From Nanobdellota archaeon (GTDB lineage: Archaea; Nanobdellota; Nanobdellia; Pacearchaeales; GW2011-AR1): a DNA stretch of 47,971 nt. The notes under the pieces are model-generated. The model saw only the letters and a list, made by a program, of their open reading frames with translations, was not told the DNA's origin and searched no databases. Positions 11,218-40,163 of this stretch are shown in pieces. Positions within the stretch are counted from its first letter, which is position 1. The number at the start of each line of letters is the position of its first letter. The position numbers were made by a program, and so were the translations under genes. Location: the NCBI GenBank assembly GCA_043810695.1, contig JBDRNV010000008.1, forward strand, positions 1 through 47,971. The letters are read 5' to 3'.

Positions 11218-12348
11218 ATGCGAGTTTTATTGGAAAAAGAATCTCGAAGAGAACTATTCAATTATTTAATGAAACAAAATAAAGTTTTCAACTTAATAGA
11301 ATTAGCAAAAAAAATGAATATTCCTTACAAAACAATAAACAGTTGGCGTTACAACTACAAAAAATATCTTCCTAATAATATTTTAAATGATTTTATAAAA
11401 AATTTAAAGATTTTGGATAAACAGCCAGATAACTGGGGGCAAATCAGGGGAGGAAAGATAGGAGGAAAGGAAAGTTCTAAACGGCTAAAAGAATTTTGGG
11501 GGAAAGAGAAATATCAAAAAATAAAGAAAGAGATTGGCAGAAAGGCAATTAAAAAACTTCAAAAGAAATATGGAATAGTTAAATTATCTCAAATGGCAAT
11601 TAATGGGAGATTAAAAAAGAGGAAAAAAAGAATTAGAGAATTAGAAGAAAAAAATAAAGAATTTTTTAGGGAACAGAAAATATTTTTGAATACAAAAGGC
11701 ATAAAATTTAGCAGGTATGATAAGATGAAGAACATCAAGTTGCCTTTTGAAATGTCATCTGAATTAGCAGAAGAAATAGGGATTCATCTTGGAGACGGAT
11801 GTCTTTCTTTTAATAGAAAATATTTTTCAGTTAAAACAAATAAAAAAGAAGAAAATTATATGATAAATTTTCTGTTTCCTTTATATAAAAAACTGTATAA
11901 TCTAGATTTAAAGTTAATGAAATTACCAAGCGTAGTTGGTTTCGAGATTTGCTCACAAACATTATTTGATTTTAAAAACAAAGTTTTAGGGATACCTTAT
12001 GGAAATAAGGTTGAGAAAATTGAAGTTCCTAAAGTAATAACAGAATCACAAAACAAAGAAATATACCGGGCTTTTATCAGGGGTTTATTTGATACTGATG
12101 GGTGTGTTAACATAATAAAATCAAAAAAGAATTATCCGGTAATAACCTTTACAATAAAATCTAAGAAGCTTATATCACAAACAAAAGAAATGTTGATAAG
12201 GTTAGGATTTATTCCTTATGCAGGAAAATGGAGAATAGACATAAATGGGAAATTTATGTTAAATAAATGGCTTGAAGAAATAGGTTCAAATAATCCAAAA
12301 AATCTTGTTAGATTAAAACAGGCGAGTGGTTCAACCAGGATAGAATAG
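11218..12348 (+). CDS. Free-standing two-motif LAGLIDADG homing endonuclease with N-terminal HTH-like region
   Basis: LAEEIGIHLGDG and FIRGLFDTDG motifs; LAKKMNIPYKTINSW HTH; no intein splicing motifs; last 29 nt overlap the tRNA-Arg(GCG). Confidence 0.88.
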   Translation: MRVLLEKESRRELFNYLMKQNKVFNLIELAKKMNIPYKTINSWRYNYKKYLPNNILNDFIKNLKILDKQPDNWGQIRGGKIGGKESSKRLKEFWGKEKYQKIKKEIGRKAIKKLQKKYGIVKLSQMAINGRLKKRKKRIRELEEKNKEFFREQKIFLNTKGIKFSRYDKMKNIKLPFEMSSELAEEIGIHLGDGCLSFNRKYFSVKTNKKEENYMINFLFPLYKKLYNLDLKLMKLPSVVGFEICSQTLFDFKNKVLGIPYGNKVEKIEVPKVITESQNKEIYRAFIRGLFDTDGCVNIIKSKKNYPVITFTIKSKKLISQTKEMLIRLGFIPYAGKWRIDINGKFMLNKWLEEIGSNNPKNLVRLKQASGSTRIE

Positions 12349-12490: not shown

Positions 12491-12841
12491 TTACTCTAAA
12501 TCTTCCAAATCATTTTTTATTTTTTGAATTTGTTTTTTTAAAGTTGGAAGATCTTCTTTAATTACTTCCCATACTTTATCTAAGTCTACCCCAAAATATC
12601 CATGAACCATAACATCTCTAAATCCAGAAATATCTTTCCACTGAACTTCAGGATATTTTGTTATAAAATCTATTGGAAGATTTTTAACAGCCTCTCCAAT
12701 TATCTCTAATCTTCTTATTGCAGCATCAATAAGTAATTTATTTGATTTAAAATTTTTTTTAGTTATTTTTATTATTGATTTTTCAATTAAATTTATATTT
12801 TCAATAATATCTTTAACAAAAAATATATTTTCTCTTTTCAT
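12491..12841 (-). CDS. HEPN (HepT/DUF86) RNase toxin
   Basis: DAAIRRLEIIGEA and RDVMVHGY (Rx4HxY) motifs. Confidence 0.9.
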   Translation of the reverse strand: MKRENIFFVKDIIENINLIEKSIIKITKKNFKSNKLLIDAAIRRLEIIGEAVKNLPIDFITKYPEVQWKDISGFRDVMVHGYFGVDLDKVWEVIKEDLPTLKKQIQKIKNDLEDLE

Positions 12842-13311
12842 ATTATTCTAACCTCATCATCTAATATGTTCTTTTTAAGCTCTGGCCTAATCATTTTATA
12901 TTCAACCAAGTCTACTTTTTTTCTAAGAGCATCCTGCAACTCATTTTTGATATGAATAAAACCCAATAAACTCATTTTCTTATTAGAAATTTCAACAAGT
13001 ATATCCACATCACTATCTTCTTTCTGTTCTCCTTTGACATAACTCCCAAAAATTCCTGCCCTTTTTATTTTATTTTTCTTTAAAATTTCAATTATTTTAG
13101 ATTTTATATTTGACAAGTTCTTATTTTCTTCCTTGTTTTTGTGTTCACGCAAACTTTTATCTGCTATTTCTTCAGCCCTTTTTAAGTCAAACTTTTTTAA
13201 ATCTTTTCCAAGATAGATTCTTTTCTTCCTAAATTTTTTACCTTCCCTTGAATTTCTGACCCTATAATAGTACTTTCTTTTATTTTTTTCTTTAATTTCA
13301 GTATATGTCAT
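12838..13311 (-). CDS. Minimal nucleotidyltransferase (MNT/MntA) antitoxin with basic N-terminal extension
   Basis: FGSYVKGEQKEDSDVD (GSx10DxD), KVDLV; ATGA overlap with the HEPN gene. Confidence 0.9.
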   Translation of the reverse strand: MTYTEIKEKNKRKYYYRVRNSREGKKFRKKRIYLGKDLKKFDLKRAEEIADKSLREHKNKEENKNLSNIKSKIIEILKKNKIKRAGIFGSYVKGEQKEDSDVDILVEISNKKMSLLGFIHIKNELQDALRKKVDLVEYKMIRPELKKNILDDEVRII

Positions 13312-16695: not shown

Positions 16696-19167
16696 TCAAG
16701 CCTCATCAACAACACCGGCATCTGTCACATTAAAGATAATTTCGTTTTCAGGAAGATTTGGAGAGTCTATTAGTTTTGCAACTCGACTGCCTGCTTTCCC
16801 TCTTCTCAAATATATTCTGTATGTTGAATTATGCACAATAAATCCGTTCGCAATATAATTCTCATGTGAAGGAACAGAGAAATCATAAAACAATTCTCTC
16901 TTCTCGTTATTTTTAATATCAATCTCTCTTATTTTCTCAAACCTAATCCCTGAGCTCAAAATTTTAAAGATAAATTCTATTTTTTGTTTCACTTGTCTGT
17001 CTTTAATTTCAACGTTCATTAAAGATTTGAAAGCCTTTTCAAGCTCGTTTCTACTAATCCATTGATAGTTTGAAGGTCTTGGTCTAATAATTTTAGAATA
17101 TTGCAACCCTGCTAATTCCAAAAGCTCTCTTAATTCTTTTCTTTTTATGGGCATCATTTCGTAAGAGTATTTTTCTTCAAGGATTTTAACGGCTTCTATC
17201 AGCCTTGCCTGTTTATCTACTGCTGTAAACCCTATCTGTAAATAGCCTTTAACATCTTTATCAATAATTCTCAGAACAGCCATTTTTTTGCTGCCAATAT
17301 CAAACTTGATTGTGCTTCTTATTCCCAGCCTAAGCAAAAACAATTGTAAGTATTGAAGAATTTTAGTTTGTTTCTGAGAAACTGAAATATATGCTCTCTT
17401 TTTATTTATATGCCCTTCTGCGTCAAAAAATCCTTTAATAAACCTGAGAACAACATCGTCTCTACTCTTTCCAACATAATTAAAAATATCATTAATAACT
17501 AAAACAAATAAATCTCTAATCTCCTTCGAATTAATAGACAAAGTATAGCAATTCTTATTTTTCATTTTACTTATATTTCCGGGGATGCTAAAAACATTTT
17601 TGAACAAAGAATTATAAAAATTCAAAACACCTAATCTTTCATCTCTGAATCTTAAACCTCCTGCCTCAAAATTTCCATCTCCGATAAAATATCCGAAAAT
17701 TTGAGCAAGTTGAGGGATCATAATTTCCGGCATAGCTAAATCCTTATATTTATTGGTATAAACTGGTAAAAGCTGTAGTTGTAATCTGCCTGAAAAATAG
17801 TTTTCTAATTTATTTAAAGTTTCAAAATTAGTTGGATAAGACTGGTTTAAAACTCTTCTAAATTGTCTTGCATTTATCCCAATTTTTTCACAAATTTCCT
17901 TTCTTGTTGTATTTTCTTTTTTTAATTCTCCTATAATTTTATTTGAATCTTTTTTAGAGATTAAACCAATTTTCTTAATATTCATAATAGGCAATCTTTG
18001 TTCTTCTCCTTCAATCTCTATTTTACCTGCTTGAGCAATAAAATCTCCGGCTTTCAAATCCTTAGCTTCTTTCTCAACTACAGAAAAATCCTCAATTGTA
18101 AAAAACCTGTGCAAAGAAGAGCAATTTATTTGATTATTAGTTTTAATAGTATAAGTCTTATCAATATTTGGATTAACAAATACAAATTCAGAATCAGCAT
18201 CATTCAATTTCATATTATTAAAATTATTTGATAAAACTTTTTCTTGCCCCATATTTTTAATTTCTTTTATTGAGCCATCTGCCAATTGTATTAAACTGTC
18301 TCCTGTCAAACAAGCATGTCCTACAATATGCCCGCCAATTGCTGTTGTTGGATCTCCAAAAATCTGTGCTGGATTTGCCATTACTTGATTTGTAACATAA
18401 ACAGCTAGATTATATGTCTCTGCAAGCTTCATAAGCTGATGAATATATCTGTTAAGCTTCTGCTGTCTGTCTGCAAGCTGCCCTCTTCCTGAGAATTCTG
18501 CACGGAAATGAGCTGTTAGTGAATCAATAATAAGAATTTTTATTTGTTCTCCATTTTTAATCATCTCTGAAATTTTATCAAGTAAAAGAATCTGATGGTC
18601 AGAATTAAAAGCTCGAGCAACAAGAATATTTTTCAAAACTTTCTCTGGATTTGCACCGAGTTTTTCTGCAATTTGTTTTATTCTTGCAGGCCTAAAAGTT
18701 CCTTCTGTATCAATGAAAACACATTTTCCATTTGCACCCCCTTTTTCTAAAGGAAACTGAACATTTACAGCAAGTGTCAGACCAACCTGGGTTTTTCCAG
18801 AACCATAAGCGCCGAAAGCCTCTGTTATTGCTCTCGATTCAACACCTCTTCCGCCAAGAAGAGAATCAAAATTTTTGCTTCCTGTTGTTATTGTAAGCAC
18901 GCTTTCTCTTTTTTTTGCATATTCTATTCCGTCCATAAATCCCAAGTCAAGCATGTTTCGTGCAGCCTGAATTATCTTTCTTGCAACAGCAGCGCTCACG
19001 CCTGCTAAATCAGATAAATCAGAAGGAGTCATTACTGCAATTGACATTAAATCATAAATTCCAGCTGCCTCTAACTTTGCAGAAACAGCAGGTCCAACAC
19101 CTGGTAAATCAGTAATCTTGGGTTCTGTAATTGCAGAAGCAGATTTTTCTTCCTCTTCCTTTACCAT
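16696..19167 (-). CDS. radA: DNA repair/recombination protein RadA, intein-containing (328 aa after splicing)
   Basis: HhH DLPGVG, Walker A GAYGSGKT, IDTEGTFRP, IIDS, TNQV, GGHIVGHA|STYRIYLR. Confidence 0.96.
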   Translation of the reverse strand: MVKEEEEKSASAITEPKITDLPGVGPAVSAKLEAAGIYDLMSIAVMTPSDLSDLAGVSAAVARKIIQAARNMLDLGFMDGIEYAKKRESVLTITTGSKNFDSLLGGRGVESRAITEAFGAYGSGKTQVGLTLAVNVQFPLEKGGANGKCVFIDTEGTFRPARIKQIAEKLGANPEKVLKNILVARAFNSDHQILLLDKISEMIKNGEQIKILIIDSLTAHFRAEFSGRGQLADRQQKLNRYIHQLMKLAETYNLAVYVTNQVMANPAQIFGDPTTAIGGHIVGHACLTGDSLIQLADGSIKEIKNMGQEKVLSNNFNNMKLNDADSEFVFVNPNIDKTYTIKTNNQINCSSLHRFFTIEDFSVVEKEAKDLKAGDFIAQAGKIEIEGEEQRLPIMNIKKIGLISKKDSNKIIGELKKENTTRKEICEKIGINARQFRRVLNQSYPTNFETLNKLENYFSGRLQLQLLPVYTNKYKDLAMPEIMIPQLAQIFGYFIGDGNFEAGGLRFRDERLGVLNFYNSLFKNVFSIPGNISKMKNKNCYTLSINSKEIRDLFVLVINDIFNYVGKSRDDVVLRFIKGFFDAEGHINKKRAYISVSQKQTKILQYLQLFLLRLGIRSTIKFDIGSKKMAVLRIIDKDVKGYLQIGFTAVDKQARLIEAVKILEEKYSYEMMPIKRKELRELLELAGLQYSKIIRPRPSNYQWISRNELEKAFKSLMNVEIKDRQVKQKIEFIFKILSSGIRFEKIREIDIKNNEKRELFYDFSVPSHENYIANGFIVHNSTYRIYLRRGKAGSRVAKLIDSPNLPENEIIFNVTDAGVVDEA
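16828..18312 (-). mobile_element. Intein (495 aa) with LAGLIDADG homing endonuclease and HTH-like insert
   Basis: Starts CLTGD; block B SSLHRF; ends YDFSV...NYIANGFIVHN followed by Ser+1; motifs GYFIGDG and KGFFDAEG. Confidence 0.93.
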
Positions 19168-19371: not shown

Positions 19372-19821
19372 TTAAAAAGTATCTTCATCAAAATTTTTTT
19401 TTGTCAAATCCTCTGGAACTCTATATTCTTCCCATCTAACTCTCTTTTTTTCTATTGTTTCCTTAAGATTTTTTTCCTGGGAAGAGAGCTTTGAATTAGC
19501 ACTTTTAACTTCAACAAAAACAACCTCATCAATTTTCTTTTCATCCATTCCTTTAAACACAATAAAATCAACAGGTTTTCCTAGAAACTTGCATTCTGTC
19601 GGAGAAAATTCAAAATCAGGTAGATAAGGAGCAAGTTGTTCTGAAAATTGTCCGCCTAAAACAGCTCGAGATTTTATGATAGCATCTTTTCTATGCTCTG
19701 GAATTTCTTTTTCCCAAAATTTATCTCTTCTTAAAGCACCAATTTTTATTCCAGCTAGATAAGCTAAAATTAATAGTATAAAAAAAACCAAAGCTAAAAC
19801 TATTGTCAATATTTCAACCAT
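19372..19821 (-). CDS. Endonuclease related to archaeal Holliday junction resolvase (PD-(D/E)xK), with N-terminal TM helix
   Basis: SRAVLGGQFSEQLAPYLP, FLGKPVDFIVF, FVEVKS. Confidence 0.85.
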   Translation of the reverse strand: MVEILTIVLALVFFILLILAYLAGIKIGALRRDKFWEKEIPEHRKDAIIKSRAVLGGQFSEQLAPYLPDFEFSPTECKFLGKPVDFIVFKGMDEKKIDEVVFVEVKSANSKLSSQEKNLKETIEKKRVRWEEYRVPEDLTKKNFDEDTF

Positions 19822-19938
19822 TTTTATATTGTTATTAGTTAAGATAGTTTAAACTTTTTTATATTGTGTTTCACTCTTAATATTATATTTAATATATATC
19901 TAGTTTATTGATGTTTCTGTTATTTTCTAATAAAAATT

Positions 19939-20242
19939 GCCCAAAAAGATAGACTATTCGAAAAGCAGGATTCTCATTAAGAGGATTCCTGTTGCAGTTG
20001 AGGTTAAGCCTGTTATCGTTAGCGTTAAACCTGGCAACTTAAAATAGTCAGTTTATTTCACAAAAATTTTAATTTTTGTGTCTGGAATCTTGCCAGCACA
20101 AAGCAAATATAAAATTTGCACACTGGAGCTTCTCGCAAGTTGCTCCTGAATTTTATAACTTAAAATAAACATTAATATGTCTTAATAAACTGGCATGTAG
20201 TCCATCCATTCTTTTCTTGCTCAGAGAAAAGAACTTTTGGGC
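19939..20242 (-). ncRNA. Putative structured DGR template RNA (~304 nt) containing the TR
   Basis: 5' GCCCAAAA pairs with 3' TTTTGGGC; at least five internal hairpins and two long-range stems; BRE/TATA at the expected distance upstream; no ORF-track ORF. Confidence 0.7.
19955..20039 (-). repeat. DGR template repeat (TR)
   Basis: 85-nt ungapped copy of 20344-20428, rich in AAC/AAT codons (reads VARFNANDNRLNLNCNRNPLNENPAFRI in the VR frame). Confidence 0.95.
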
Positions 20243-20263
20243 GAAAAATATAAGAAAAACTTG

Positions 20264-20278
20264 TTTAAATTTTTTTCG
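20264..20278 (-). promoter_or_regulatory. BRE-TATA promoter of the putative TR RNA
   Basis: CGAAAAAAA-TTTAAA on the - strand; TATA element 22-27 nt upstream of the predicted 5' end at 20242. Confidence 0.6.
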
Positions 20279-20328
20279 TTTTTCATATCAAAGAATTTTT
20301 CAATATATCAGCGAGCTAATCAGTCAGC

Positions 20329-21012
20329 TTAATCAACTTCCAATACCCGAAAAGCAGGATCCTCACTAAGAGGATACCCGAGGCAGCTGAGGACAAGCCC
20401 GCTATCGCAAGCGTCAAACCTGGCAACTCTTTCATTTTTTTGTGATGGCTTTGAATTTAATCTCCAAATACAACTATTAGTTCTATTAATCCATTGAGAA
20501 ACTTCATTTATTTTAGTGGTATCTTTTGTTCCTAAAAGTTGTTCTAAAACATTTGTGTCAGAAAGTGCATCTATAGAACTATCTGGACCAGTAACATTGG
20601 TATCTATTGAATATTCATCTGAAGTTTTATAATTATGTATAATCTTGTCTTCGTTTACTGGATTATAAATTATTCTTGTTAATGTATTCGGATATTTTCT
20701 AAAATCTCGTGCAAAAAACTGCCTTAGTTTTTCAGCTTCTAATGAGTTTTCATTTCTAAGTTCATATGCTCTTGTTGCAATAGCCCAAATTAAAGGTATA
20801 TCTGTTGGATGAGGATTTCCTTTTTGTTTTTCAATTTCATAAAGTTCAGCAAGTTTTTCTTGATTCATTGAAGAAGTCATTTGCTCAAAAAGTCTGTAGG
20901 TCCCTGTTTGTCCTTTGTAAAAAACATCAGGAATAAGGAAACGTTTTTCAGCTTGCCAAGTCAAGATAGGAGATTCGTATATAATTCCTCGTTCTTTTAT
21001 TTCAGTTTCCAT
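20329..21012 (-). CDS. DGR target protein with hypervariable C-terminus (probably C-type-lectin-like fold)
   Basis: VR at the extreme 3' end; C-terminal AFRV resembles the GFR strand of CLec-fold targets; no signal peptide or TM helix. Confidence 0.88.
   Translation of the reverse strand: METEIKERGIIYESPILTWQAEKRFLIPDVFYKGQTGTYRLFEQMTSSMNQEKLAELYEIEKQKGNPHPTDIPLIWAIATRAYELRNENSLEAEKLRQFFARDFRKYPNTLTRIIYNPVNEDKIIHNYKTSDEYSIDTNVTGPDSSIDALSDTNVLEQLLGTKDTTKINEVSQWINRTNSCIWRLNSKPSQKNERVARFDACDSGLVLSCLGYPLSEDPAFRVLEVD
20344..20428 (-). repeat. DGR variable repeat (VR)
   Basis: 16 mismatches to the TR, all at TR adenines (11 A>G, 4 A>T, 1 A>C); 0 of 58 non-A positions differ. Confidence 0.95.
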
Positions 21013-21088
21013 GATTTTTCATGGAATAAAGGGTTTATAAATATTTCTTTTTAGTAATTTTTTAATAGTAACAAATCCATTTTATCAC

Positions 21089-22030
21089 CTACTTTTCTAG
21101 TCCTTTTATAACACCATCAGCATCAACTTCTTTCAATTCATCAACAACAAGTTCAAGGTTATTGAAAAAGGCGTTATTTCTTATATTTCCAGAGAAAAAC
21201 ATCTCTTTTCCTAATATAGATTGTTTTTGTTCTAATAATTTTTCAGGATTTTCAAGTTCTGTAATGCCTAGATTATTAAGTTTTTCGTGAAATAAAACAG
21301 CTCTTATAGTGCCTGTTCCATCATCAAGAACAATAGTTGCAACAGCTCTTTTTTCAGGAATAACTTTTTCATGAGTTTTGCATACAAATACATCTCCTTC
21401 TTTCTCAATTTTTCTGTTGCATTGGGGGCAGACATTAAAAAATCTGGGTTCAAAAAATTGAACAACAAATGCTCTTGTACCAACTGTTTCTCCTTTCTTA
21501 AAATCTGAAATTTTTCTTTCCCGAAAAATCTTTTGAGTTATTACATTCTCTAAATTTTCGTTACTAATTTTTATTTCTGAAAAATTTCCTAAATGAAGCT
21601 CATTGTCTCTCATTGCTGCATTTGATATCTCAATAACACTTCCTTCTTTTATTTCTCCTTTCTCAATTAAAGCAACATGATTTGTATCCCAAAGAACTGT
21701 TTTAATATTTGAAGAATCATCAGCCATAAAAAGATTAACAACTTTTGATTCATCCCCTTTTTTTGTTTTAAATGTTCTTACAGGCGATATGCTAATTACT
21801 TTTCCTATAACATTCACTTTTCTCATACTAGGAAGAAGCTCTCCTATCTTAAGTTTATCATGTTCAAAAGAAATTCCAAGTTCAGCTGCTACAACCTGCG
21901 CAGCTCCCTCTTTACTTATAAGTCCTGAAAGTTTTGTTCTTTTTGCTTCTATTCTGCTATCAATCTCCTCTTTTGTAAGATTTGCAGCCTTTGCTATTTT
22001 TTCAATAATTCGCTCATAATTTCCAATCAT
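21089..22030 (-). CDS. rpa: Replication protein A / OB-fold ssDNA-binding protein with Zn finger
   Basis: LSGLISKEGAAQVVA N-terminus, OB fold (DDSSNIKTVLWD), CPQC...CKTH, LDDGTGTIRAVLF. Confidence 0.85.
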   Translation of the reverse strand: MIGNYERIIEKIAKAANLTKEEIDSRIEAKRTKLSGLISKEGAAQVVAAELGISFEHDKLKIGELLPSMRKVNVIGKVISISPVRTFKTKKGDESKVVNLFMADDSSNIKTVLWDTNHVALIEKGEIKEGSVIEISNAAMRDNELHLGNFSEIKISNENLENVITQKIFRERKISDFKKGETVGTRAFVVQFFEPRFFNVCPQCNRKIEKEGDVFVCKTHEKVIPEKRAVATIVLDDGTGTIRAVLFHEKLNNLGITELENPEKLLEQKQSILGKEMFFSGNIRNNAFFNNLELVVDELKEVDADGVIKGLEK

Positions 22031-30639: not shown

Positions 30640-33600
30640 TTAGACGCACATTCCATATGTATTGCAGATTTTTCCTGCACTACACTTATCATTATCTGCA
30701 TGATATCCTCTTCCATCAACATTACATACAGAACATTCTGAGTTTGGTCTTAATGTGTTTGGAGTACATGGTAGACAATAACCTCTTGTATATATATTAG
30801 ATATACCACACACAGTATTACTACATAAACTATTATTAGCATATCTGACAAAACCATCCAAACATATTAAACAATTAGTGCCTAATATCAAGCCTGTTCC
30901 AGTACATCCGCCAGGAGTTGGTAAACTTGTATCAAAGAATTTAACTCCTGAAACAGGATCTCTCATATTATTTGGTGGATTTTTATTATCTATAGCAATA
31001 GCATAATATTCATGATATTCACCAATATCTTTTACAAAAAAGTTAAATATGCAAATAGGATTATTATTACAGGTAATAACAGGTGTATTCATATCATCAT
31101 AAAATATCTGAATTGTTTTAATTCCATATGGAGAATAAACAGCAGCACTTATTGTAGACTCTGCATTTACCCAAATCGTTTGAACCGGACCGTGAGAGAC
31201 AAATAACGAAGTGAAATCTGTATTAGTTGTAGTATCAACACAAGTTCCTAATGGATTACAATATTTGCCTGTTCCACATTTTGAATGGTCATAATAATCA
31301 TAAGCTGATTCATCTGTATTGCAAAATAAACAAATTGAACCTGGTTTAAGGGTGTTAGCAACACATAATTGAACATGTTGTACAGTAAAGCTTTTTGTTT
31401 CTGATGTATTTGAAATACCATAAAAATCAAAAGCTTTTGCGTAATATGTATGTGGCCCGTTTGGATAAGTTCTAGCATCAGTCGTGCAATTACATAAATT
31501 AGATTTACAAACATTACAATAATAATCAGAAAGATCACATTCTTTAATCTTATTACCATCAAAATAAATTTCTACTCTATCTATTCCAGAGTTTCCTGTG
31601 TTTACATCACTTGCTGTAGCTGTAATTGTAATAAGTTGTGTTTGATTTGGATTGCTTGGACTATGAGATACAGAGATTGTTGGGGCTGTAAAATCAGTAC
31701 GATTATATATAACATTTATTTTAGCAGTTGTTGAATTTAAACCAGATGTATCAATTGCTATTACTTCTATTGTATTATTTCCGAAAATAAATGGGTATGA
31801 TCCTGTTGCTGTACCCCATGACGCATTAGTTCCAGATTGAGTTAAATAAGCAGAAAACCATTTTTGATTATTTACCCTTAATATAACATCACTAATTCCT
31901 AAATTATCAAAAGCATTACCTCTAATAGATACCCAATCATAAAGAGATATCTGCCAATTTGTTGGTGAACTAATTGCTATTGTTGGAGGAATTGTATCTT
32001 TTGTATCTGTTACTACAAATCTTTTTGTTCCTACACTAGGGTCAACACCCATATTATTATAATTATCTAAAGCAGTTGCATAATATTCATAGGTTCCTAA
32101 GGCAAAAGTCTTTGTATAAACACAAGGACTGCTTGTACATGTTTTAACATTTACATTATCAACATAAATCTGTATTTGTTTTATTCCATTTGCATCATTT
32201 GCATTTGCTGTTATTGTAACAGGTTGTGTTTGATTTGGATTGCTTGGACTATGAGATACAGAAACAGTTGGATCTATTTCATCGATTGATCTTACAGTAA
32301 AGTCCTTTAATTTAACATCAGGAACTGTCTTAGTATTATTTGCACCATCAACAGCAATTGCATAATAAGTATGGGTACCTCTTAAATAAATTTTAGGCAT
32401 TGTTGCACAGATACATGCACCTGAAGTGCATACTGGATTAAATGTACAACTTCCAGCTAAGATATAATCAACATAAATTTTTATTTCTTTTATTCCAGAA
32501 TCACCTAATCCAACATCGCTTGCACTAGCTGTTATTGTAACACTATCTGTTGTTAATGGATTTGTTGGAGAATGGCTTGCAGAAATATTTGGAGAAATCG
32601 TATCTAGCTCTGCTACACTAAATGTTTTTGTTGTTGTGGTTGCATTATTATTTGCACCATCAATAGCACTTACATAATAATAATGTGTTCCAATGTAATA
32701 ATCATTAGCAGGAGTTGCACAAGTGCATGAACTTGAAGTGCATATTGTACTAAATGTACATGTTCTAGATAAAGTTCCGTCGACATAAACTCGTATTTCT
32801 TTTATTCCAGAATTTCCAGTGTTCACATCGCTTGCATTTGCTGTAATTACAACAGGTTGTTCAATTTTGGGATTAGTTGGAGAATGACTAACAGAAACAG
32901 TTGGAACGATTGTATCTGGTCCTGCTACCCCTATAGTTATTGTTCTTGTTTCTGTTGATGCGCTTCTAGTGTCGTCGTTTGTATTTACAGAATATATGTG
33001 TGTGCCATTTGCGATTGATTGTTCGTTTATTTCAAATAAATAAGTGTTAATGCTTGTCTTACGTAGATTTCCATAATAATGTTGTTTTATTTCTTCTGCC
33101 GTTAAGCTTCTATTCCATATTCTTAGCTCATCAACTGTACCATTTAGAACTCCTGGTGCTCCACAGCATTGTTGTGAACCAATTTCTAATGGGATAGTTG
33201 TTCTAGGTAATGTGCCATACACAGAATTAATTGTTTCTGTCTGTTGTACACCATTAATATACAATTTCATTGTCGATCCGTCATATGTTGAAGCCACATG
33301 ATACCATTGATTATTATCTGCAATTGTATTGGAGTATATTGTTCCACCTATATTGTTTCCTGTAGCGTTCCCTAACTGCATGGCTATGGATCCGCTGCTT
33401 GTCACTCCTGTTCTCCATCCTCTACTATATCCATCTAATCCTACAATGATAGCTGTAGATGATGGATTATTATTTTTCTTAAACCAATATTCTACAGTAT
33501 AAGTTTTCATTCCTTGCAATGCTGATCTTTCATAAACATTTAGGCTCATTGGTTTACCTGTAAATCCTATACCTCCACCATATACACCTGTTGTTAGTAT

Positions 33601-36219
33601 ACATTGAGTTACATTCCAACATGCACCATTTTGACCATAAATGCTTGCATCCTTAATCAAGGTACTATTTTCACCCCAATCATTCAGATTCTCGAAATTG
33701 AACATTAAAACAAGTGTTGGGTCATAGAAAGAATAACTATTACTATCCCAAACAAAATTAACATTTTTCAATTTTTGAGAATTTATAATATTAGCACTGA
33801 TACTTACATTATTAGAAGACGTAGAAGCACCGTTAGGCAGAGTACTTGGTGTAAAGCTAACATCTAAATTTGAAGTGATGATACCAAATGTTGCTGTGGC
33901 GCTTCGATTTGAATTCATTATTAAAGTACAAACTCCAGTATTACTGCAAGCCCCACTCCATCCAACAAAGTTATATCCATTTCCAGGTGTTGCTGTCAAT
34001 GCCACAGATGTTCCGCTACTGTAAGTATTTTTACATGTTGTGCCGCAATTAGTATTTGGTGGATTAATATTAATAGTTCCAGAACCTGATACAGTTGTTG
34101 TTAAAGCATAAACAGTTGGTGCTATAACTATAAAACTCTTTGTTCCTGATAAAGGATCTCTTCCAATATTACCATAACTATCTGTTGCATCTGCATAATA
34201 TGTGTGTGGTCCAGCAGGGGGTATACCTGAATATGCACATGGTGATGATGTACATGTTCTTTTTAATAATCCATCACTATAAATTCTTATTTGGCTTATA
34301 CCAGATGCATCAGTAGCAGTAGCTGTTAATGTTACTGTATCTCCTGGTATTGGATTACTTGGACTATGTGTTACGTTAACAATTGGATTTGTTTCATCAC
34401 CACCTAATTCTAATTCTACATTAACTTTAGCAATACTAGATGATTTTCCAGAAGCATCAAATGATTGAGCTTCTATAATATTAGTTCCTGGAATTAAAGT
34501 AACAGGAATGCTCCATGGATTTGTTCCTGTAGCAGTTGACCATAATGCTTCATTATTTAATCTAACTCTTACACTTGTTACTCCAATATCATCACTAGCT
34601 GTTCCTCTTACAATAATATTTGCATTTTCTGCCTTAAATCTATCTCCTTCTTCAGGATAGGTAATTGCAACAATTGGATTTTGTGTATCTGTTTGTGTAA
34701 CTGTAAAACTTTTAGAAGGATTACCAGGACTAGGATCTGTATTACTATTATCAGAACCATCAACAGCAACTGCAGAATAATTATGAGTACCAACAGAATA
34801 AGTTCTAGAAGTAGTTGCACAGGTACAGGATGTTAAAGTACATAATATGGCAAATGCACATGTTCTAGATAAAACATCATCAACGTAAACTCTTATTTCG
34901 CTAATTCCAGAATCACCTTTATCCACATCACTTGCAGTTGCTGTAATTATAACTTGTTGTATGTGTGTAGGATTATCTGGTGAATGTATTACAGAAATTG
35001 TTGGATGTTCAATGTCTATTGGTGTTGTATCATTAAAATTAACATTTACCTTAGCTACTGCAGAACCAATTTCAAAAACATTAAATGCTTGAGCTTCTAT
35101 TACATTAGTTCCTTCAACTAAAGTAACTTGAGTTTCCCATGTTGCAATCTTACTACTTAAACCAATAGGATTAGGAACATCTACACCATTTACTTTTACA
35201 CTTACATAAGATAATTTAACACCATCTCTTGCAGTACCTGAAACAACTATTGATGCAGTATTAAAAACCTGCCCTTCAGTAGGGCTTACTATTTGAATAA
35301 TTGGTACTTTTTTTATAATATCAGGATCTTTTATATTTCTTACAGAGAGGTATTTATCACTCTTACTATTAATACCTGTTTCTAGAGCTATATCTAATGT
35401 TTCATCACTATCTAAATCAACAACCTGAACATCTTCTTCTACAACTTCAAATGGAGCTGTTCCAGCATCAATATCTAGAATTATTATACTCTTATCTTCT
35501 TGATCAATTAAAGCAATTGAATGTGGTTCATCATTTATTCCAAAGTTTAAAACACTATCTTCACCTAGTATAAAATAAAATGTATTAACCAAATCTCCAA
35601 TATTATAACTCTGTCCTGCAGCAATTATCAAGGGATTTTCAGAATCTAAACCAAGGATTATAGGTAGTGGTTCAACTCCTCCACCTCCCCCGCCACCTCC
35701 TCTGCTACCAGTATTACTGCCTGCTTTTGTTATCTTTACAATTCCTTCTACAAAATCATCTGCTATTCTTTTAACTAAGGGTTTAACTCTTCTAACATTG
35801 AACATTAATTTCGCTTTTTTTACATCTCCTTTCAAAGTCATGTAAAGTATTTCAAGGCTACCTATTATTGTTTCATTTTCAACTCCTATAGGACATTCTA
35901 AAATAATCTTAACCTCTTTATTGCCTGAATTAATTAGTGAAGATTGATCAAGATAAGCATTAATGCAAGTACTCATGCGAATAGATTCAGGAATTATTCT
36001 TAATTCTTGCACATCTGTTGCTTCTAATAAAACATAATTTTGTTGATCTAACTGTTCTTGTGTAAAAACTTTAACTTCTTTGCACGTAAAAGGTCCTTGA
36101 ACATTACAACCTCTTTCTTGTTTAATTGGAACAAAATAACTAACAAGCAATAATGTAATAATAATTCCAACAATTATTATTAGAAATACTAACAATGATA
36201 TTAATTGGTTCTTTTTCAT
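30640..36219 (-). CDS. Giant membrane-anchored surface protein (1859 aa): Ig-like repeats, InlB-B-like repeat, LamG/concanavalin domain, Cys-rich tail
   Basis: N-terminal TM helix; repeated DT..PT.SV.HSP.NP...VTITA.A.D..GI..I..YVD units; TPGNGYNFVGWSGAC; WYHVASTYDG...LYING...VDELRIWNR. Confidence 0.85.
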   Translation of the reverse strand: MKKNQLISLLVFLIIIVGIIITLLLVSYFVPIKQERGCNVQGPFTCKEVKVFTQEQLDQQNYVLLEATDVQELRIIPESIRMSTCINAYLDQSSLINSGNKEVKIILECPIGVENETIIGSLEILYMTLKGDVKKAKLMFNVRRVKPLVKRIADDFVEGIVKITKAGSNTGSRGGGGGGGGVEPLPIILGLDSENPLIIAAGQSYNIGDLVNTFYFILGEDSVLNFGINDEPHSIALIDQEDKSIIILDIDAGTAPFEVVEEDVQVVDLDSDETLDIALETGINSKSDKYLSVRNIKDPDIIKKVPIIQIVSPTEGQVFNTASIVVSGTARDGVKLSYVSVKVNGVDVPNPIGLSSKIATWETQVTLVEGTNVIEAQAFNVFEIGSAVAKVNVNFNDTTPIDIEHPTISVIHSPDNPTHIQQVIITATASDVDKGDSGISEIRVYVDDVLSRTCAFAILCTLTSCTCATTSRTYSVGTHNYSAVAVDGSDNSNTDPSPGNPSKSFTVTQTDTQNPIVAITYPEEGDRFKAENANIIVRGTASDDIGVTSVRVRLNNEALWSTATGTNPWSIPVTLIPGTNIIEAQSFDASGKSSSIAKVNVELELGGDETNPIVNVTHSPSNPIPGDTVTLTATATDASGISQIRIYSDGLLKRTCTSSPCAYSGIPPAGPHTYYADATDSYGNIGRDPLSGTKSFIVIAPTVYALTTTVSGSGTININPPNTNCGTTCKNTYSSGTSVALTATPGNGYNFVGWSGACSNTGVCTLIMNSNRSATATFGIITSNLDVSFTPSTLPNGASTSSNNVSISANIINSQKLKNVNFVWDSNSYSFYDPTLVLMFNFENLNDWGENSTLIKDASIYGQNGACWNVTQCILTTGVYGGGIGFTGKPMSLNVYERSALQGMKTYTVEYWFKKNNNPSSTAIIVGLDGYSRGWRTGVTSSGSIAMQLGNATGNNIGGTIYSNTIADNNQWYHVASTYDGSTMKLYINGVQQTETINSVYGTLPRTTIPLEIGSQQCCGAPGVLNGTVDELRIWNRSLTAEEIKQHYYGNLRKTSINTYLFEINEQSIANGTHIYSVNTNDDTRSASTETRTITIGVAGPDTIVPTVSVSHSPTNPKIEQPVVITANASDVNTGNSGIKEIRVYVDGTLSRTCTFSTICTSSSCTCATPANDYYIGTHYYYVSAIDGANNNATTTTKTFSVAELDTISPNISASHSPTNPLTTDSVTITASASDVGLGDSGIKEIKIYVDYILAGSCTFNPVCTSGACICATMPKIYLRGTHTYYAIAVDGANNTKTVPDVKLKDFTVRSIDEIDPTVSVSHSPSNPNQTQPVTITANANDANGIKQIQIYVDNVNVKTCTSSPCVYTKTFALGTYEYYATALDNYNNMGVDPSVGTKRFVVTDTKDTIPPTIAISSPTNWQISLYDWVSIRGNAFDNLGISDVILRVNNQKWFSAYLTQSGTNASWGTATGSYPFIFGNNTIEVIAIDTSGLNSTTAKINVIYNRTDFTAPTISVSHSPSNPNQTQLITITATASDVNTGNSGIDRVEIYFDGNKIKECDLSDYYCNVCKSNLCNCTTDARTYPNGPHTYYAKAFDFYGISNTSETKSFTVQHVQLCVANTLKPGSICLFCNTDESAYDYYDHSKCGTGKYCNPLGTCVDTTTNTDFTSLFVSHGPVQTIWVNAESTISAAVYSPYGIKTIQIFYDDMNTPVITCNNNPICIFNFFVKDIGEYHEYYAIAIDNKNPPNNMRDPVSGVKFFDTSLPTPGGCTGTGLILGTNCLICLDGFVRYANNSLCSNTVCGISNIYTRGYCLPCTPNTLRPNSECSVCNVDGRGYHADNDKCSAGKICNTYGMCV

Positions 36220-38094: not shown

Positions 38095-38724
38095 TTAGGG
38101 TAAAATTTTTTGATAAACACTAAATTCTTCAAAGAATTCTATTTCTTGACTGTATAATTTGAAAACAGTATAAATTCTATAATCTCCAACCTCACTAAGA
38201 ACTAAATTTTTAGAATTGAACAATTCTGCTAAATCAAAATAACTTTTAGGAGAGATGATAATATTTTCATTTAAAACAAGATTCTGGTAATTATTCCAGC
38301 TACCACCACTATTTTTTTGTATAATCATAGAAAGTTGTCCATTTATTAAACTGTCTTGATTATTCACAATTTTTGATTCTGAAATATATACATTAGGAGT
38401 ATTAAATGTATCTCGATCATTTAAATTAGAATCATCTAAATTCTCTTGTTTTTCTGTTTGTCTTCTAAATAAATTTAAGAAACCATTAAAAATTCGGGTA
38501 AAAAAGTTTTCTTTCTGTTCTTCGCCCAAAGTTGCTTGTTTATAGATAGACATTTTTGTTTTTTCTATTAAAGGTTGGCTGTGTATTGACAATAATTTTT
38601 CAACAGATTCATCATTATTATAAGCAATACTTGAAACAAAATTCATTGATAAAATAAATAAACTTAATAAGACAAAACAAATTCCCAAAACTGTTAATGA
38701 ATTTTTTCTTTTTTTAAATTTCAT
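38095..38724 (-). CDS. Secreted/membrane hypothetical protein
   Basis: Signal-peptide-like N-terminus; ATGA-coupled to the upstream gene. Confidence 0.6.
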   Translation of the reverse strand: MKFKKRKNSLTVLGICFVLLSLFILSMNFVSSIAYNNDESVEKLLSIHSQPLIEKTKMSIYKQATLGEEQKENFFTRIFNGFLNLFRRQTEKQENLDDSNLNDRDTFNTPNVYISESKIVNNQDSLINGQLSMIIQKNSGGSWNNYQNLVLNENIIISPKSYFDLAELFNSKNLVLSEVGDYRIYTVFKLYSQEIEFFEEFSVYQKILP

Positions 38725-40163
38725 ATTAATTTAATAAATTCTCCAGGTTCAAATACATTTTTATTTAATTTTAAGAATAAAGAAACATTTAGCGGCAAAC
38801 ATGCGCTATCAACACACCCGTTTAAACAATCCATAATCTCGTAATGGGCTCTATCATTATCACAATACCATTCACTTACAGCAAAACCAGAATCAGATGT
38901 AAATATCTGCCCATTATAACAAGAATCATAGCAAATTCCAAAAACACAATTATTATTTCCACCTGTAAGATTTCCCTTAACATAATAATTTTTTCCTTCA
39001 TCACTATCAAAACAAGTTGGTTCGTTTATTATTCTAAATCCAGGAGATAATCCATTAACATAACCCCAATCATAATTTCCACTAGTATCAATAGCCTTAC
39101 AATTCCAGGCATAATCAGTTGCTACAGAAAAACTTTTTATAAAAGTTAAGGTAGCATTTTTTCCAGTTACCATTTTAGTTTCATCTACATAAAATCCACC
39201 TTTAACATCTGTTAACCAAAATTCTACTTGACTTAATTCAACATCATCACTAACAGAACAAGTAAATGATATTAGTTGATTTACATTAAAAGTTTGATTT
39301 ATTGGGGAAATTAAAATAACATTTGGTTTAGTTATTTCTTTTATGCAAGCTCCATCAACACAACCATTTGAACAGTCAATAACTTCATAATTAGCTATAC
39401 CATTATCACAATACCATTCACTTACAGCAAAGCCAGAATCTAGAGTAAATCTCTGTCCATTATAACAAGAATCATAGCAAATTCCAGAATCACAGCTATT
39501 AGCTCCTTCTGTAAGACTTCCCTTAGTGTAGTAATCTTTTCCCCCGTCAGTATCTAAACAAATTGTTTTATTTATTATTTTAAATCCAGGAGACAATCCA
39601 TTAACATAACCCCAATCATAATTTCCACTAGTATCAATAGATTTACAATTCCAGGCATAATTACCAAGAATATTAAATGTTTTAATAAAAGTTACATTTG
39701 CAGCAGTTCCAGAAATAGATTTAGTTTCATTTATATAAAATCCTTTTCCACCACCAGCTAACCAAAACTCTACTTTGCTTAATCTATTATCATTGCTAAC
39801 AGAACAAGTAAATGATATTAGTTGATTTACATTAAAAGTTTGATTTATTGGTGAGATTAAATTAACTCGAGGAATAGTTAAATTTTGTACACATTTTCCA
39901 TTGATACAAATTTGATCAGAAGAACATGCAGTTATAGGACTCCATTCTAAACAAGAATCAGCATTATAATCACTACATGTTTGATAACCTGTTGCTCCAT
40001 AACACTGTGTTGCACCATTATAAGGACAGATATTAATGCATGCGGCAAGAGCTTTTCCAGTAATCTTATCCCAGAAATCTCCAAACCAACCAGCAGAAAC
40101 AGGAGCAACTAACAGAATTAATATTAAGAATAAAAAAATTGGAACAGCCATCTCTTTTTTCAT
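38721..40163 (-). CDS. Secreted Cys-rich surface protein with two tandem 182-aa units (Ig-like plus C.D.DGG module)
   Basis: Signal peptide PVSA|GWF; duplicated LISPINQTFNVNQLISFTCSVS...YAWNCK...CYDSCYNGQ; 546-nt offset. Confidence 0.8.
   Translation of the reverse strand: MKKEMAVPIFLFLILILLVAPVSAGWFGDFWDKITGKALAACINICPYNGATQCYGATGYQTCSDYNADSCLEWSPITACSSDQICINGKCVQNLTIPRVNLISPINQTFNVNQLISFTCSVSNDNRLSKVEFWLAGGGKGFYINETKSISGTAANVTFIKTFNILGNYAWNCKSIDTSGNYDWGYVNGLSPGFKIINKTICLDTDGGKDYYTKGSLTEGANSCDSGICYDSCYNGQRFTLDSGFAVSEWYCDNGIANYEVIDCSNGCVDGACIKEITKPNVILISPINQTFNVNQLISFTCSVSDDVELSQVEFWLTDVKGGFYVDETKMVTGKNATLTFIKSFSVATDYAWNCKAIDTSGNYDWGYVNGLSPGFRIINEPTCFDSDEGKNYYVKGNLTGGNNNCVFGICYDSCYNGQIFTSDSGFAVSEWYCDNDRAHYEIMDCLNGCVDSACLPLNVSLFLKLNKNVFEPGEFIKLI

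Follow-up and report, generated by a model that had tools for sequence, protein, structure and literature searches.

RT-16 as the 5' half of DGR template RNAs in archaea, and a probable template gene served by a remote RT

How can a DGR template be put to use when no RT is encoded beside it, and in what kind of RNA does such a template lie? These questions are raised by a locus in a 47,971-nt archaeal contig (hereafter the window, by which we mean the whole of that stretch). Nano-sized archaea and bacteria are unusually rich in DGRs; to our knowledge, a single phage, BPP-1, is the only source of what is known of DGR RNA biology. The window is contig C8 of a genome of 0.67 Mb (30% G+C, 24 contigs, 80% complete). 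It encodes, among other proteins, RadA with an intein, EF-1 beta, RPA and a type IV prepilin peptidase, and the sequencing runs that contain the region are groundwater metagenomes. An earlier note on this DNA had proposed that the TR is embedded in a structured RNA with a promoter of its own; every motif that it had located was found in place on the minus strand (Table 1).

The element, 19939-20242 on the minus strand, is indeed more stably folded than chance would give. The MFE of the 304-nt strand is -81.8 kcal/mol compared to -61.0 +/- 4.7 for shuffled controls (z -4.41), and 0/100 shuffles fold as well, which agrees with what the earlier note had expected of a structured RNA. The two long-range helices on which much of our argument turns, H1 and H2, are both already present in this single-sequence MFE fold.

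Table 1. Features of the template RNA element and of the adjoining target gene, in window coordinates
Feature	Sequence	Position	Strand	Basis or remark
Promoter-like element	CGAAAAAAATTTAAA	20278-20264	-	A-rich BRE-like run, then TATA box TTTAAA 20269-20264
H1 5' strand, predicted RNA 5' end	GCCCAAAAG	20242-20234	-	Cognate pairing test; RNA-run contig ends at 20242 + 2 nt
H1 3' strand	TTTTTGGGC (also written UUUUUGGGC)	19947-19939	-	Cognate pairing test
P2 hairpin	TTCTTTTCT/AGAAAAGAA	20233-20225/20217-20209	-	Within Rfam RT-16 consensus
P2 hairpin as RNA	UUCUUUUCU, loop, AGAAAAGAA	20209-20233	-	RT-16 consensus
X1, the H2 5' strand	GAUGGACUA	20206-20198	-	Covariation; ends with invariant A20198, candidate priming nucleotide
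Linker, H2 to P3	CAYGCC	20192-20197	-	Conserved; A20196 and G20194 invariant in 87/87
RT-16 RNA domain (Rfam RF03019)		20039-20241	-	Full model, 1-158
P3 5' strand	CAGTTTATT (RNA CAGUUUAUU)	20192-20184	-	Covariation, all 9 P3 pairs change on both sides
P3 3' strand	AATAAACTG (RNA AAUAAACUG)	20057-20049	-	Covariation; ~10 nt upstream of TR
Type-alpha insertion, three hairpins	GCAAAU/AUUUGC; GUGCUGG-CAAGAUU-CCAGACAC; CACAAAAAU/AUUUUUGUG	20059-20119	-	
Hairpins of the earlier note	GGAGC/GCTCC; GCAAAT/ATTTGC; CTGG/CCAG; CACAAAAAT/ATTTTTGTG		-	Present as described there
TR		19959-20039	-	All mismatches to two VRs at TR adenines
Y, the H2 3' strand	UAGUCUAUC, overlapping IMH*-like CGAAUAGUC	19956-19948	-	Covariation
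T5 run		19936-19932	-	3 nt past H1; possible archaeal terminator, read from sequence
Proposed TR clamp	GACTATT/AATAGTC	20049-20043/19958-19952	-	Present; no covariation
VR, C-terminus of target gene		20348-20428	-	TR/VR comparison
Target gene, 227 aa		20329-21012	-	ORF

Template, target gene and RT-16 domain

The TR bears the mark of DGR mutagenesis. It differs from the local VR at 14 positions, all 14 of which are TR adenines, with no non-A change over 81 nt, and when this TR is compared with a second VR, on contig C7, the mismatches again all lie at TR adenines (13/13); a pattern confined to adenines in both VRs suggests that the cassette was active recently. The local VR makes up the last 30 codons of its ORF, the product of which matched no Pfam family and no PDB sequence. 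Where the TR has CGAAU the VR has CGGGU, which may be compared with the IMH and IMH* of Paul et al., 2015. The sister cassettes on contigs C10, C2 and C5 have GRA-loop hairpins after their VRs. Within ~70 nt after the VR of the window no stable hairpin was found; this carries little weight, since by our criterion 26/61 RT-linked copies are also without one. In the C7 paralogue, both RT-16 and the TR have visibly been deleted. Over 561 nt that include the VR, the window and a metagenome contig (L107) are 100% identical, so no VR difference is seen between the two assemblies; further upstream the gene of L107 differs (90% protein identity). In run X3, no contig covers the VR at a likeness of at least 85%, which we did not count as VR heterogeneity; one contig of that run joins 20040 to 20330, with 31 nt on its shorter side.

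An Rfam scan identified 20039-20241 on the minus strand as RT-16 (RF03019), at 62.3 bits against a gathering score of 50 (E 1.3e-8) and over model positions 1-158 of 158. The ~200 nt structured 5' domain that the earlier note had described corresponds to this full-length match, and the RNA is therefore not the distinct, undescribed class that the note had thought possible, RT-16 having been catalogued by Weinberg et al., 2017. RT-10 gave no match in the scan of the element. In the passages that deal with these motifs, Weinberg et al., 2017 (NAR, PMC5737381) present RT-1 to RT-19 simply as motifs near RT genes, assign RT-10 to the TR-RT spacer of BPP-1 and speculate that further RT motifs may act in DGRs.

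The window shares with RT-16 its consensus parts, namely the P2, P3 and GGAGC stems and the conserved AUAAAAU core, and the P2 and GGAGC hairpins proposed in the earlier note both fall inside that consensus. In the copies on contigs C2 and C5 the sequence of P2 is different, yet its pairing is kept. In the Rfam model, which ends at the TR, the 5'-most bases pair locally, whereas in the window those bases pair across the TR to form H1; likewise, the segment before CAYGCC pairs with the 3' flank of the TR to form H2, a helix that is absent from the model. Two further features set the window apart from RT-16 as catalogued: there is no adjoining RT, and there is an extra insertion of ~60 nt with three hairpins.

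Is the proximity of RT-16 to a TR peculiar to this locus? In the source genome there are four RT-16 copies, each directly 5' of a TR, and the copies on C10 and C5 have an intact 352-aa RT (RVT_1 ORF) directly after their own RT-16 and TR. Across the same order we collected 104 RT-16 matches from 68 genomes. Of the 92 that have at least 450 nt upstream and could be tested for TR/VR pairs, 79 have an adenine-biased pair, and in 76 the TR starts at most 6 nt from the 3' end of RT-16. An RT lies downstream on the same strand in 78/104 matches, a median of 104 nt after the motif, and the usual order is therefore promoter, RT-16, TR, RT; among the remaining matches 19 have no RT, 4 have one on the opposite strand and 3 could not be judged. 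RT-16 is present in 57/151 genomes of a sample of the order and in 35/151 genomes of a sample of the phylum, where it reaches 33/119 genera. We assign RT-16 to the DGR template RNA as its 5' half. This assignment is new within the literature that we searched, as are H1 and H2, the permuted layout described below and a lineage of template RNA genes, conserved and RT-less, that carry modules of their own. The search returned neither a link between RT-16 and a TR nor the terms "orphan TR" or "standalone TR"; supplements and Paul et al., 2017 (Nat Microbiol) lay outside it and may hold a prior mention.

Two helices that span the template

Two long-range helices enclose the template; neither is part of the Rfam model, and both covary strongly. 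The first, H1, is the stem by which the earlier note had closed the 5' and 3' ends, and it proved to be cognate-specific across 87 related elements: 5' and 3' strands from the same locus reach a helix score of 8.16, compared to 6.27 for strands from different loci (z 14.6), and 0/2000 permutations reach the observed sum. H1 has at least 7 bp in 67/87 loci even though there are 80 distinct 5' strands among them. In the source genome alone, the four copies begin with GCCCAAAAG, GUCCUGACA, GCCUUGACU and CCUAGCCA, and each of these is complemented after its own TR. The cognate tests drew on 87 usable loci, the other 17/104 being left out where the anchor motif was missing or truncated, and H1 was assessed by the script comparing cognate with non-cognate strands only, because MAFFT left its strands unaligned.

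The second helix, H2, joins the 7-10 nt directly 5' of the invariant CAYGCC (GAUGGACUA in the window) to the 3' flank of the TR (UAGUCUAUC), starting from the U of GGAAU. Its cognate score is 7.82 against 5.18 for non-cognate strands (z 18.4). When the helix is read in a fixed register over 83 distinct combinations, the first pair is A-U in 83/83, the second is U-A in 48 and C-G in 30, and the eighth is U-A in 20, A-U in 20 and C-G in 12. In our alignment (A1), H2 by itself is 95.1% paired, 6/7 of its pairs change on both sides, and the terminal A-U pair at the TR 3' end is invariant in 87/87; the columns A52, A54 and G56, in the CAYGCC region, are also invariant. Taken together, H2 and P3 are 93.2% paired compared to 74.7% for shuffled alignments, with changes on both sides in 15/16 pairs and a covariation score of 0.649 compared to 0.286; 0/500 shuffles reach this score, and controls in which the strands were slid are 19-52% paired. 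P3, a long-range stem that the earlier note had also drawn (CAGTTTATT with AATAAACTG), is therefore borne out by covariation at all 9 of its pairs.

Covariation in homologues, the support to which the earlier note had looked, was thus found for the closing stem and for P3, but not for the third of its long-range pairings, a clamp of GACTATT with AATAGTC that was to hold both ends of the TR. As the main pairing of the TR flanks the clamp fails: 72.9% of its cells are paired compared to 72.7% in shuffles, its covariation score is 0.190 in both, 166/500 shuffles pair as well, and the outer A-U pairs are formed in only 29/87 and 19/87 relatives. Its four central pairs hardly vary and so carry no information. 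The clamp had assigned the wrong partner to the 3' flank of the TR, since the partner that covaries with this flank is the H2 5' strand at 20206-20198. A short alternative of 4-5 bp between the TR flank and an invariant GCUA just upstream of the TR is possible and is compatible with most sequences. We also considered the local pairing of the Rfam type, in which the 5' strand pairs with the segment before CAYGCC; it is weaker than H1 in 87/87 loci, although a small cognate signal is left (z 8.4).

Cassettes without an RT and the case for a separate gene

The earlier note had suspected a remote RT for this template. An RVT_1 domain was detected in none of the ORFs of 80 aa or more across the 48-kb window, and the two RTs of the genome lie on other contigs, C10 and C5. 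The arrangement recurs in relatives. In 19 of the 104 matches at least 1.4 kb of downstream sequence is free of any RT, and a TR/VR pair accompanies 15 of the 19. An RT-linked copy is also present in 11/14 genomes that hold an RT-less TR cassette, and in 10 relatives the RT-less cassette and the RT are on different contigs (8), 69 kb apart (1) or 3 kb apart (1). The target protein has homologues in metagenomes (67%, 66% and 47% identity), and downstream of every one of these genes come a long RT-16 and a TR; at 2/2 of the loci long enough to judge, no RT lies within ~2.6 kb.

RT-less copies also differ from RT-linked ones in build. An insertion of type alpha or beta, placed after the GGAGC stem and before the 3' strand of P3, is found in 13/19 RT-less copies but in 1/78 RT-linked copies (L076). 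Among the RT-less copies, the alpha type is carried by the window, the C2 copy, L023 and L067, and the beta type by nine loci. The alpha hairpins are common to L027, L023, L067, L076 and L108, and one of them appears as CUGG/CCAG, CAGG/CCUG, CGGG/CCCG or CAAG/CUUG around a conserved CAAGAUU loop. The earlier note had drawn the three hairpins from the window, and all three show compensatory changes, read by eye, in the few copies that have them.

The most serious objection to a working RT-less cassette is that it may be the fossil of a complete DGR whose RT was deleted or moved, the loss being so recent that the fold and the adenine pattern linger although nothing is diversified now. Cassettes of this kind can arise by RT deletion, given that stubs of the RT gene (~30 aa) are kept after the TR in two RT-less copies (L024 and L080). 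Three genomes with an RT-less TR cassette (G125, G144 and G164; 89-91% complete) gave no RT match at all, and neither did a fourth, which holds a relic RT-16 without a TR. In RT-less cassettes 212/241 (88%) of mismatches fall on A, compared to 762/788 (96.7%) in RT-linked ones, which leaves a larger share of non-A mismatches (12% compared to 3.3%). At our own locus, the VR is identical in a second assembly and the C7 paralogue has visibly deleted its RT-16 and TR, and the sections of Paul et al., 2015 (PMC4372165) on partial DGRs raise the same option for those. However, given that the alpha and beta insertions are found almost only in RT-less copies, in many genera and with compensatory changes in their stems, that the layout of gene, RT-16 and TR without an RT is kept down to 47% identity of the target protein, that H1 and H2 are intact in the window, that over 81 nt the TR shows 0 differences from two VRs at bases other than A, that RNA-run contigs exist for both RT-less copies of the genome, and that this genome has two intact RTs, we consider it unlikely that the element is such a fossil.

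If the cassette is a working one, its RNA could be transcribed by itself or as part of something longer. The BRE/TATA element that the earlier note had placed upstream of 20242 is matched by a TATA box that is conserved in position among 101 upstream sequences. Relative to the start of RT-16, these sequences are A-rich at -36..-32 and have TTT at -29..-27 and A at -24, the base composition is flat upstream of the A-rich stretch, and a strict TATA-like hexamer starts within -36..-24 in 54/101. With this conserved spacing the TTTAAA of the window is rightly placed for a start at ~20242. At the other end, a run of at least four T within 15 nt past H1 is found in 4/10 RT-less compared to 9/61 RT-linked copies.

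Transcript data point the same way. In one groundwater metatranscriptome run, a 219-nt contig corresponds to 20034-20242 with 0 differences, and the rest of 19700-21100, the target gene included, is uncovered (5/30 bins covered); a second RNA contig, from the C2 copy, starts ~1 nt before its H1 strand (the position on C2 was counted by hand). DNA contigs of two other runs continue through 20242. These are Logan contigs, which cannot prove RNA ends or strand, DNA may be present in RNA libraries, and a single study is involved; that contigs from RNA runs begin at the predicted 5' end is a hint of a discrete transcript.

The element starts 87 nt past the stop codon of the target gene and on the same strand, and in a genome of 70% A+T, TATA-like strings are common, such hexamers being found at other offsets too. 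The RNA might then be no independent gene but the 3' UTR of the target mRNA, or part of a longer operon transcript, with an incidental TATA. Considering that the information in the 101 upstream sequences peaks specifically at -29..-27 and -24, that the RNA-run contig stops at 20242 + 2 nt where the DNA contigs of two runs go on and the target gene is uncovered, and that the RNA contig of the C2 element starts at the equivalent position, we regard this as very improbable. Finally, although Weinberg et al., 2017 (PMC5737381), in the same passages, speculated that many RT motifs take part in retrons, and although the RNA is the leader of the RT mRNA in RT-linked copies, where H1 ends 10-25 nt before the RT start codon, we can hardly believe that RT-16 has some other RT-linked function (for instance in priming msDNA as in retrons, or in controlling RT translation) to which TR adjacency is secondary, as the TR starts at most 6 nt from the motif in 76/92 testable copies, H1 and H2 span the TR and covary, and RT-less copies retain the domain with no RT to regulate.

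The description of the template as a stand-alone RNA gene, which goes back to the earlier note, accordingly needs to be divided. It suits the window, with its structured RNA, promoter-like element and absence of an RT, and it suits the RT-less copies that recur elsewhere, whereas in 78/104 matches the same RNA is the leader of an RT gene.

A model for the template RNA and its relation to known systems

We believe it likely that 19939-20242 on the minus strand is an independently transcribed satellite DGR template RNA of the RT-16 class that is served in trans. In the model that we propose, the TATA box would start transcription at ~20242 and the T5 run probably ends the transcript. The RNA would consist of the RT-16 domain of ~200 nt followed directly by the 81-nt TR. 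H1 and H2 would close the template into the fold, stacked on one continuous 3' strand, and would form a three-way junction with hairpin P2. By analogy with BPP-1, H2 may be the template:primer duplex, in which the invariant A20198 (or A20196) would give the priming 2'-OH, and P3, reached after a 3-nt CAY linker, may act as the stop for cDNA synthesis in the manner of the BPP-1 cPRT Stop. As the contig encodes no RT, one from another locus would have to act on this RNA in trans. Of the two in the genome we favour the RT of C10: among RT-linked leaders, its own is most closely related to the element (81% over 74 nt), and both have the GGAGC stem in its short ACUUGCGAG form. The cDNA, mutagenised at adenines, would serve to rewrite the VRs of both the adjoining 227-aa gene and the C7 paralogue.

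The earlier note had raised the possibility that the RNA substitutes for Avd. The Avd family (PF05635) gave no match in the source genome at E <= 1, with the genome 80% complete, and a match in 13/151 genomes of the order and in 4/57 RT-16-positive genomes, one of these below the cut-off; divergent Avd-like proteins could be missed by a family model. With Avd not found in this genome and rare among those that carry RT-16, the RNA may therefore do without Avd, or may stand in for it.

More tentatively, the model might be extended to the DPANN class as a whole. DGRs there would be modular and free of Avd, with RT-16 as the RT-docking core of an RNA that is circularly permuted relative to that of BPP-1, so that primer strand, 3-nt linker, stop helix and accessory domain all come 5' of the template; the alpha and beta sub-lineage would consist of free-standing satellite template genes, with their own promoter and terminator, each reprogramming its own target by means of an RT from elsewhere in the genome, and one RT would serve several independently transcribed templates.

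With these observations an orphan Rfam motif acquires a definite place in DGR biology, forming the 5' half of the template RNA across an archaeal class, and its structure is extended across the template by two covarying helices. The observations also provide a testable model of how cDNA synthesis might be primed and stopped without Avd. RT-less template cassettes are missed by surveys based on RT genes and by the Rfam model itself. If such cassettes are active in trans, the DGR target repertoires of these organisms have been undercounted. Furthermore, compact, RNA-only "template cartridges" would, on the same condition, be attractive for the engineering of targeted mutagenesis.

The window invites comparison with retrons, in which the msr/msd RNA is a structured RNA that provides both the template and the priming 2'-OH for its RT. 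The RNA described here would resemble it in holding the template and, by analogy, the priming 2'-OH in one molecule. In contrast, retrons are not known to rewrite a target gene, their template is not a copy of a gene, and their RT is encoded next to the RNA.

The cassette appears, from its sequence, to be of the nanoarchaeal type of DGR reported by Paul et al., 2015 (Nat Commun, PMC4372165). In the parts of that paper that concern the DUSEL4 Nanoarchaeota, the DGRs have GGGGU in the VR and GGAAU in the TR, and the window and its source genome resemble them in this IMH/IMH* signature, in the GRA-loop hairpins after the VRs of the sister cassettes, in the presence of several DGRs per genome and in the occurrence of partial DGRs without an RT. 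However, the partial DGRs of DUSEL4 are described there as being without a TR, like the C7 copy here and unlike the cassette of the window, and the sections concerned contain no RT-less cassette that keeps its TR inside a structured RNA.

The closest parallel in architecture is the DGR RNA of BPP-1 (avd-TR-Sp, Rfam RT-10). According to the portions of Handa et al. (bioRxiv 10.1101/2023.10.23.563531) that treat this RNA, a strand of Sp that ends in the priming adenosine is paired with the TR 3' end, and this duplex sits in the active site of bRT; a second duplex, formed 2 nt further along Sp with RNA upstream of the TR, is the cDNA stop; and upstream and downstream sequences pair across the TR in 207/278 Avd-containing DGRs. 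Pairing across the TR is therefore no novelty in itself, being already known for DGR RNAs of the BPP-1 type. In both systems the TR is flanked by structured RNA, which is essential in BPP-1, and in both a duplex at the TR 3' end is followed, a few nucleotides on, by a second duplex whose partner lies just upstream of the TR. No relation in sequence or Rfam family was found between the two RNAs, and the equivalence of their helices is one of analogy. The linker between the duplexes is 2 nt in BPP-1 and 3 nt in the window (C-A-Y, with an invariant A). The accessory domain of BPP-1, Sp, is ~140 nt long, lies 3' of the TR and works with Avd, whereas that of the window is ~200 nt long and lies 5' of the TR, after which only ~20 nt follow before the T-run. 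By this analogy, the order in which the four strands are joined would be permuted, P3 being capped by the RT-16 core and the ends held together by H1, and the core topology of the window would be a circular permutation of that of BPP-1, with the accessory domain moved from the 3' to the 5' side of the TR.

Second target gene and sequences joined across the template element

A paralogue of the target gene lies outside the window, on another contig of the same genome (C7:7760-8000), and its variable repeat (VR) matches the template repeat (TR) of the window. When this locus was compared with window positions 19923-19968 and 20309-20460, the RT-16 domain was found to be entirely gone and most of the TR deleted, such that the gene tail ...GCTCGCTG joins CTTTTCAAATAGTC... 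directly with nothing between them. What is kept, at 98% identity to the window, is 46 nt comprising the 3' flank of the TR and the 3' strand of the long-range helix H1.

A single contig from the DNA run X3 links position 20330 to 20040, skipping the 289 nt that hold the gene tail and RT-16. The shorter side of this joint is only 31 nt, with 8 differences across its TR-like part, and the contig may come from a variant form of the cassette or be a VR placed at the wrong site. In the groundwater metatranscriptome (run X5), the RNA contig over the RT-16 domain stops 5 nt inside the TR, at window position 20034, and is followed by 8 unlike letters that are A/G-rich in the RNA sense; no TR is covered by either of the two RNA contigs from this run. 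This end within the TR and the uncovered TRs may reflect low coverage, processing or a tail.

Template repeats and reverse transcriptase genes of relatives

Five relatives (RT-16 loci L007, L024, L034, L053 and L060) carry within the TR an additional hairpin-forming segment of ~30-40 nt (columns ~558-594 of the RT-16 alignment A1), which lies immediately 5' of the GGAAU end and breaks TR/VR homology.

Many of the DGR reverse transcriptase (RT) genes in relatives either give RVT_1 matches divided between two adjacent frames near profile positions 107-115 or carry stop codons in frame. Frameshifted pseudogenes, errors of assembly in A-runs or programmed frameshifting could account for this pattern. 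In the window's genome, the two RTs are intact.

Other genes of the window

The remaining genes considered here are collected with the RT genes in the table. The two proteins with Ig domains are probably surface proteins.

RT genes of relatives with split frames or in-frame stops, and other genes of the window
Feature	Location	Strand	Remarks
RT gene	G037:C14:21638-22265		
RT gene	G116:C6:29991-30633		
RT gene	G077:C66:5118-5745		
RT gene	G177:C23:22959-23634		
RT gene	G011:C18:795-1193		
Free-standing 376-aa ORF with LAGLIDADG domain	11218-12348	+	Adjoins HepT-like RNase/nucleotidyltransferase pair
HepT-like RNase and nucleotidyltransferase pair	12491-13311	-	Toxin-antitoxin-like
RadA/Rad51 recombinase gene	16696-19167	-	Split by intein with LAGLIDADG endonuclease
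Holliday-junction-resolvase-like nuclease gene	19372-19821		Immediately downstream of template RNA
1859-aa protein, five Big_7 Ig-like repeats and laminin-G domain	30640-36219	-	Long DNA repeats inside
Second Ig-domain protein	38721-40163	-	Repeat-rich; near 1859-aa protein
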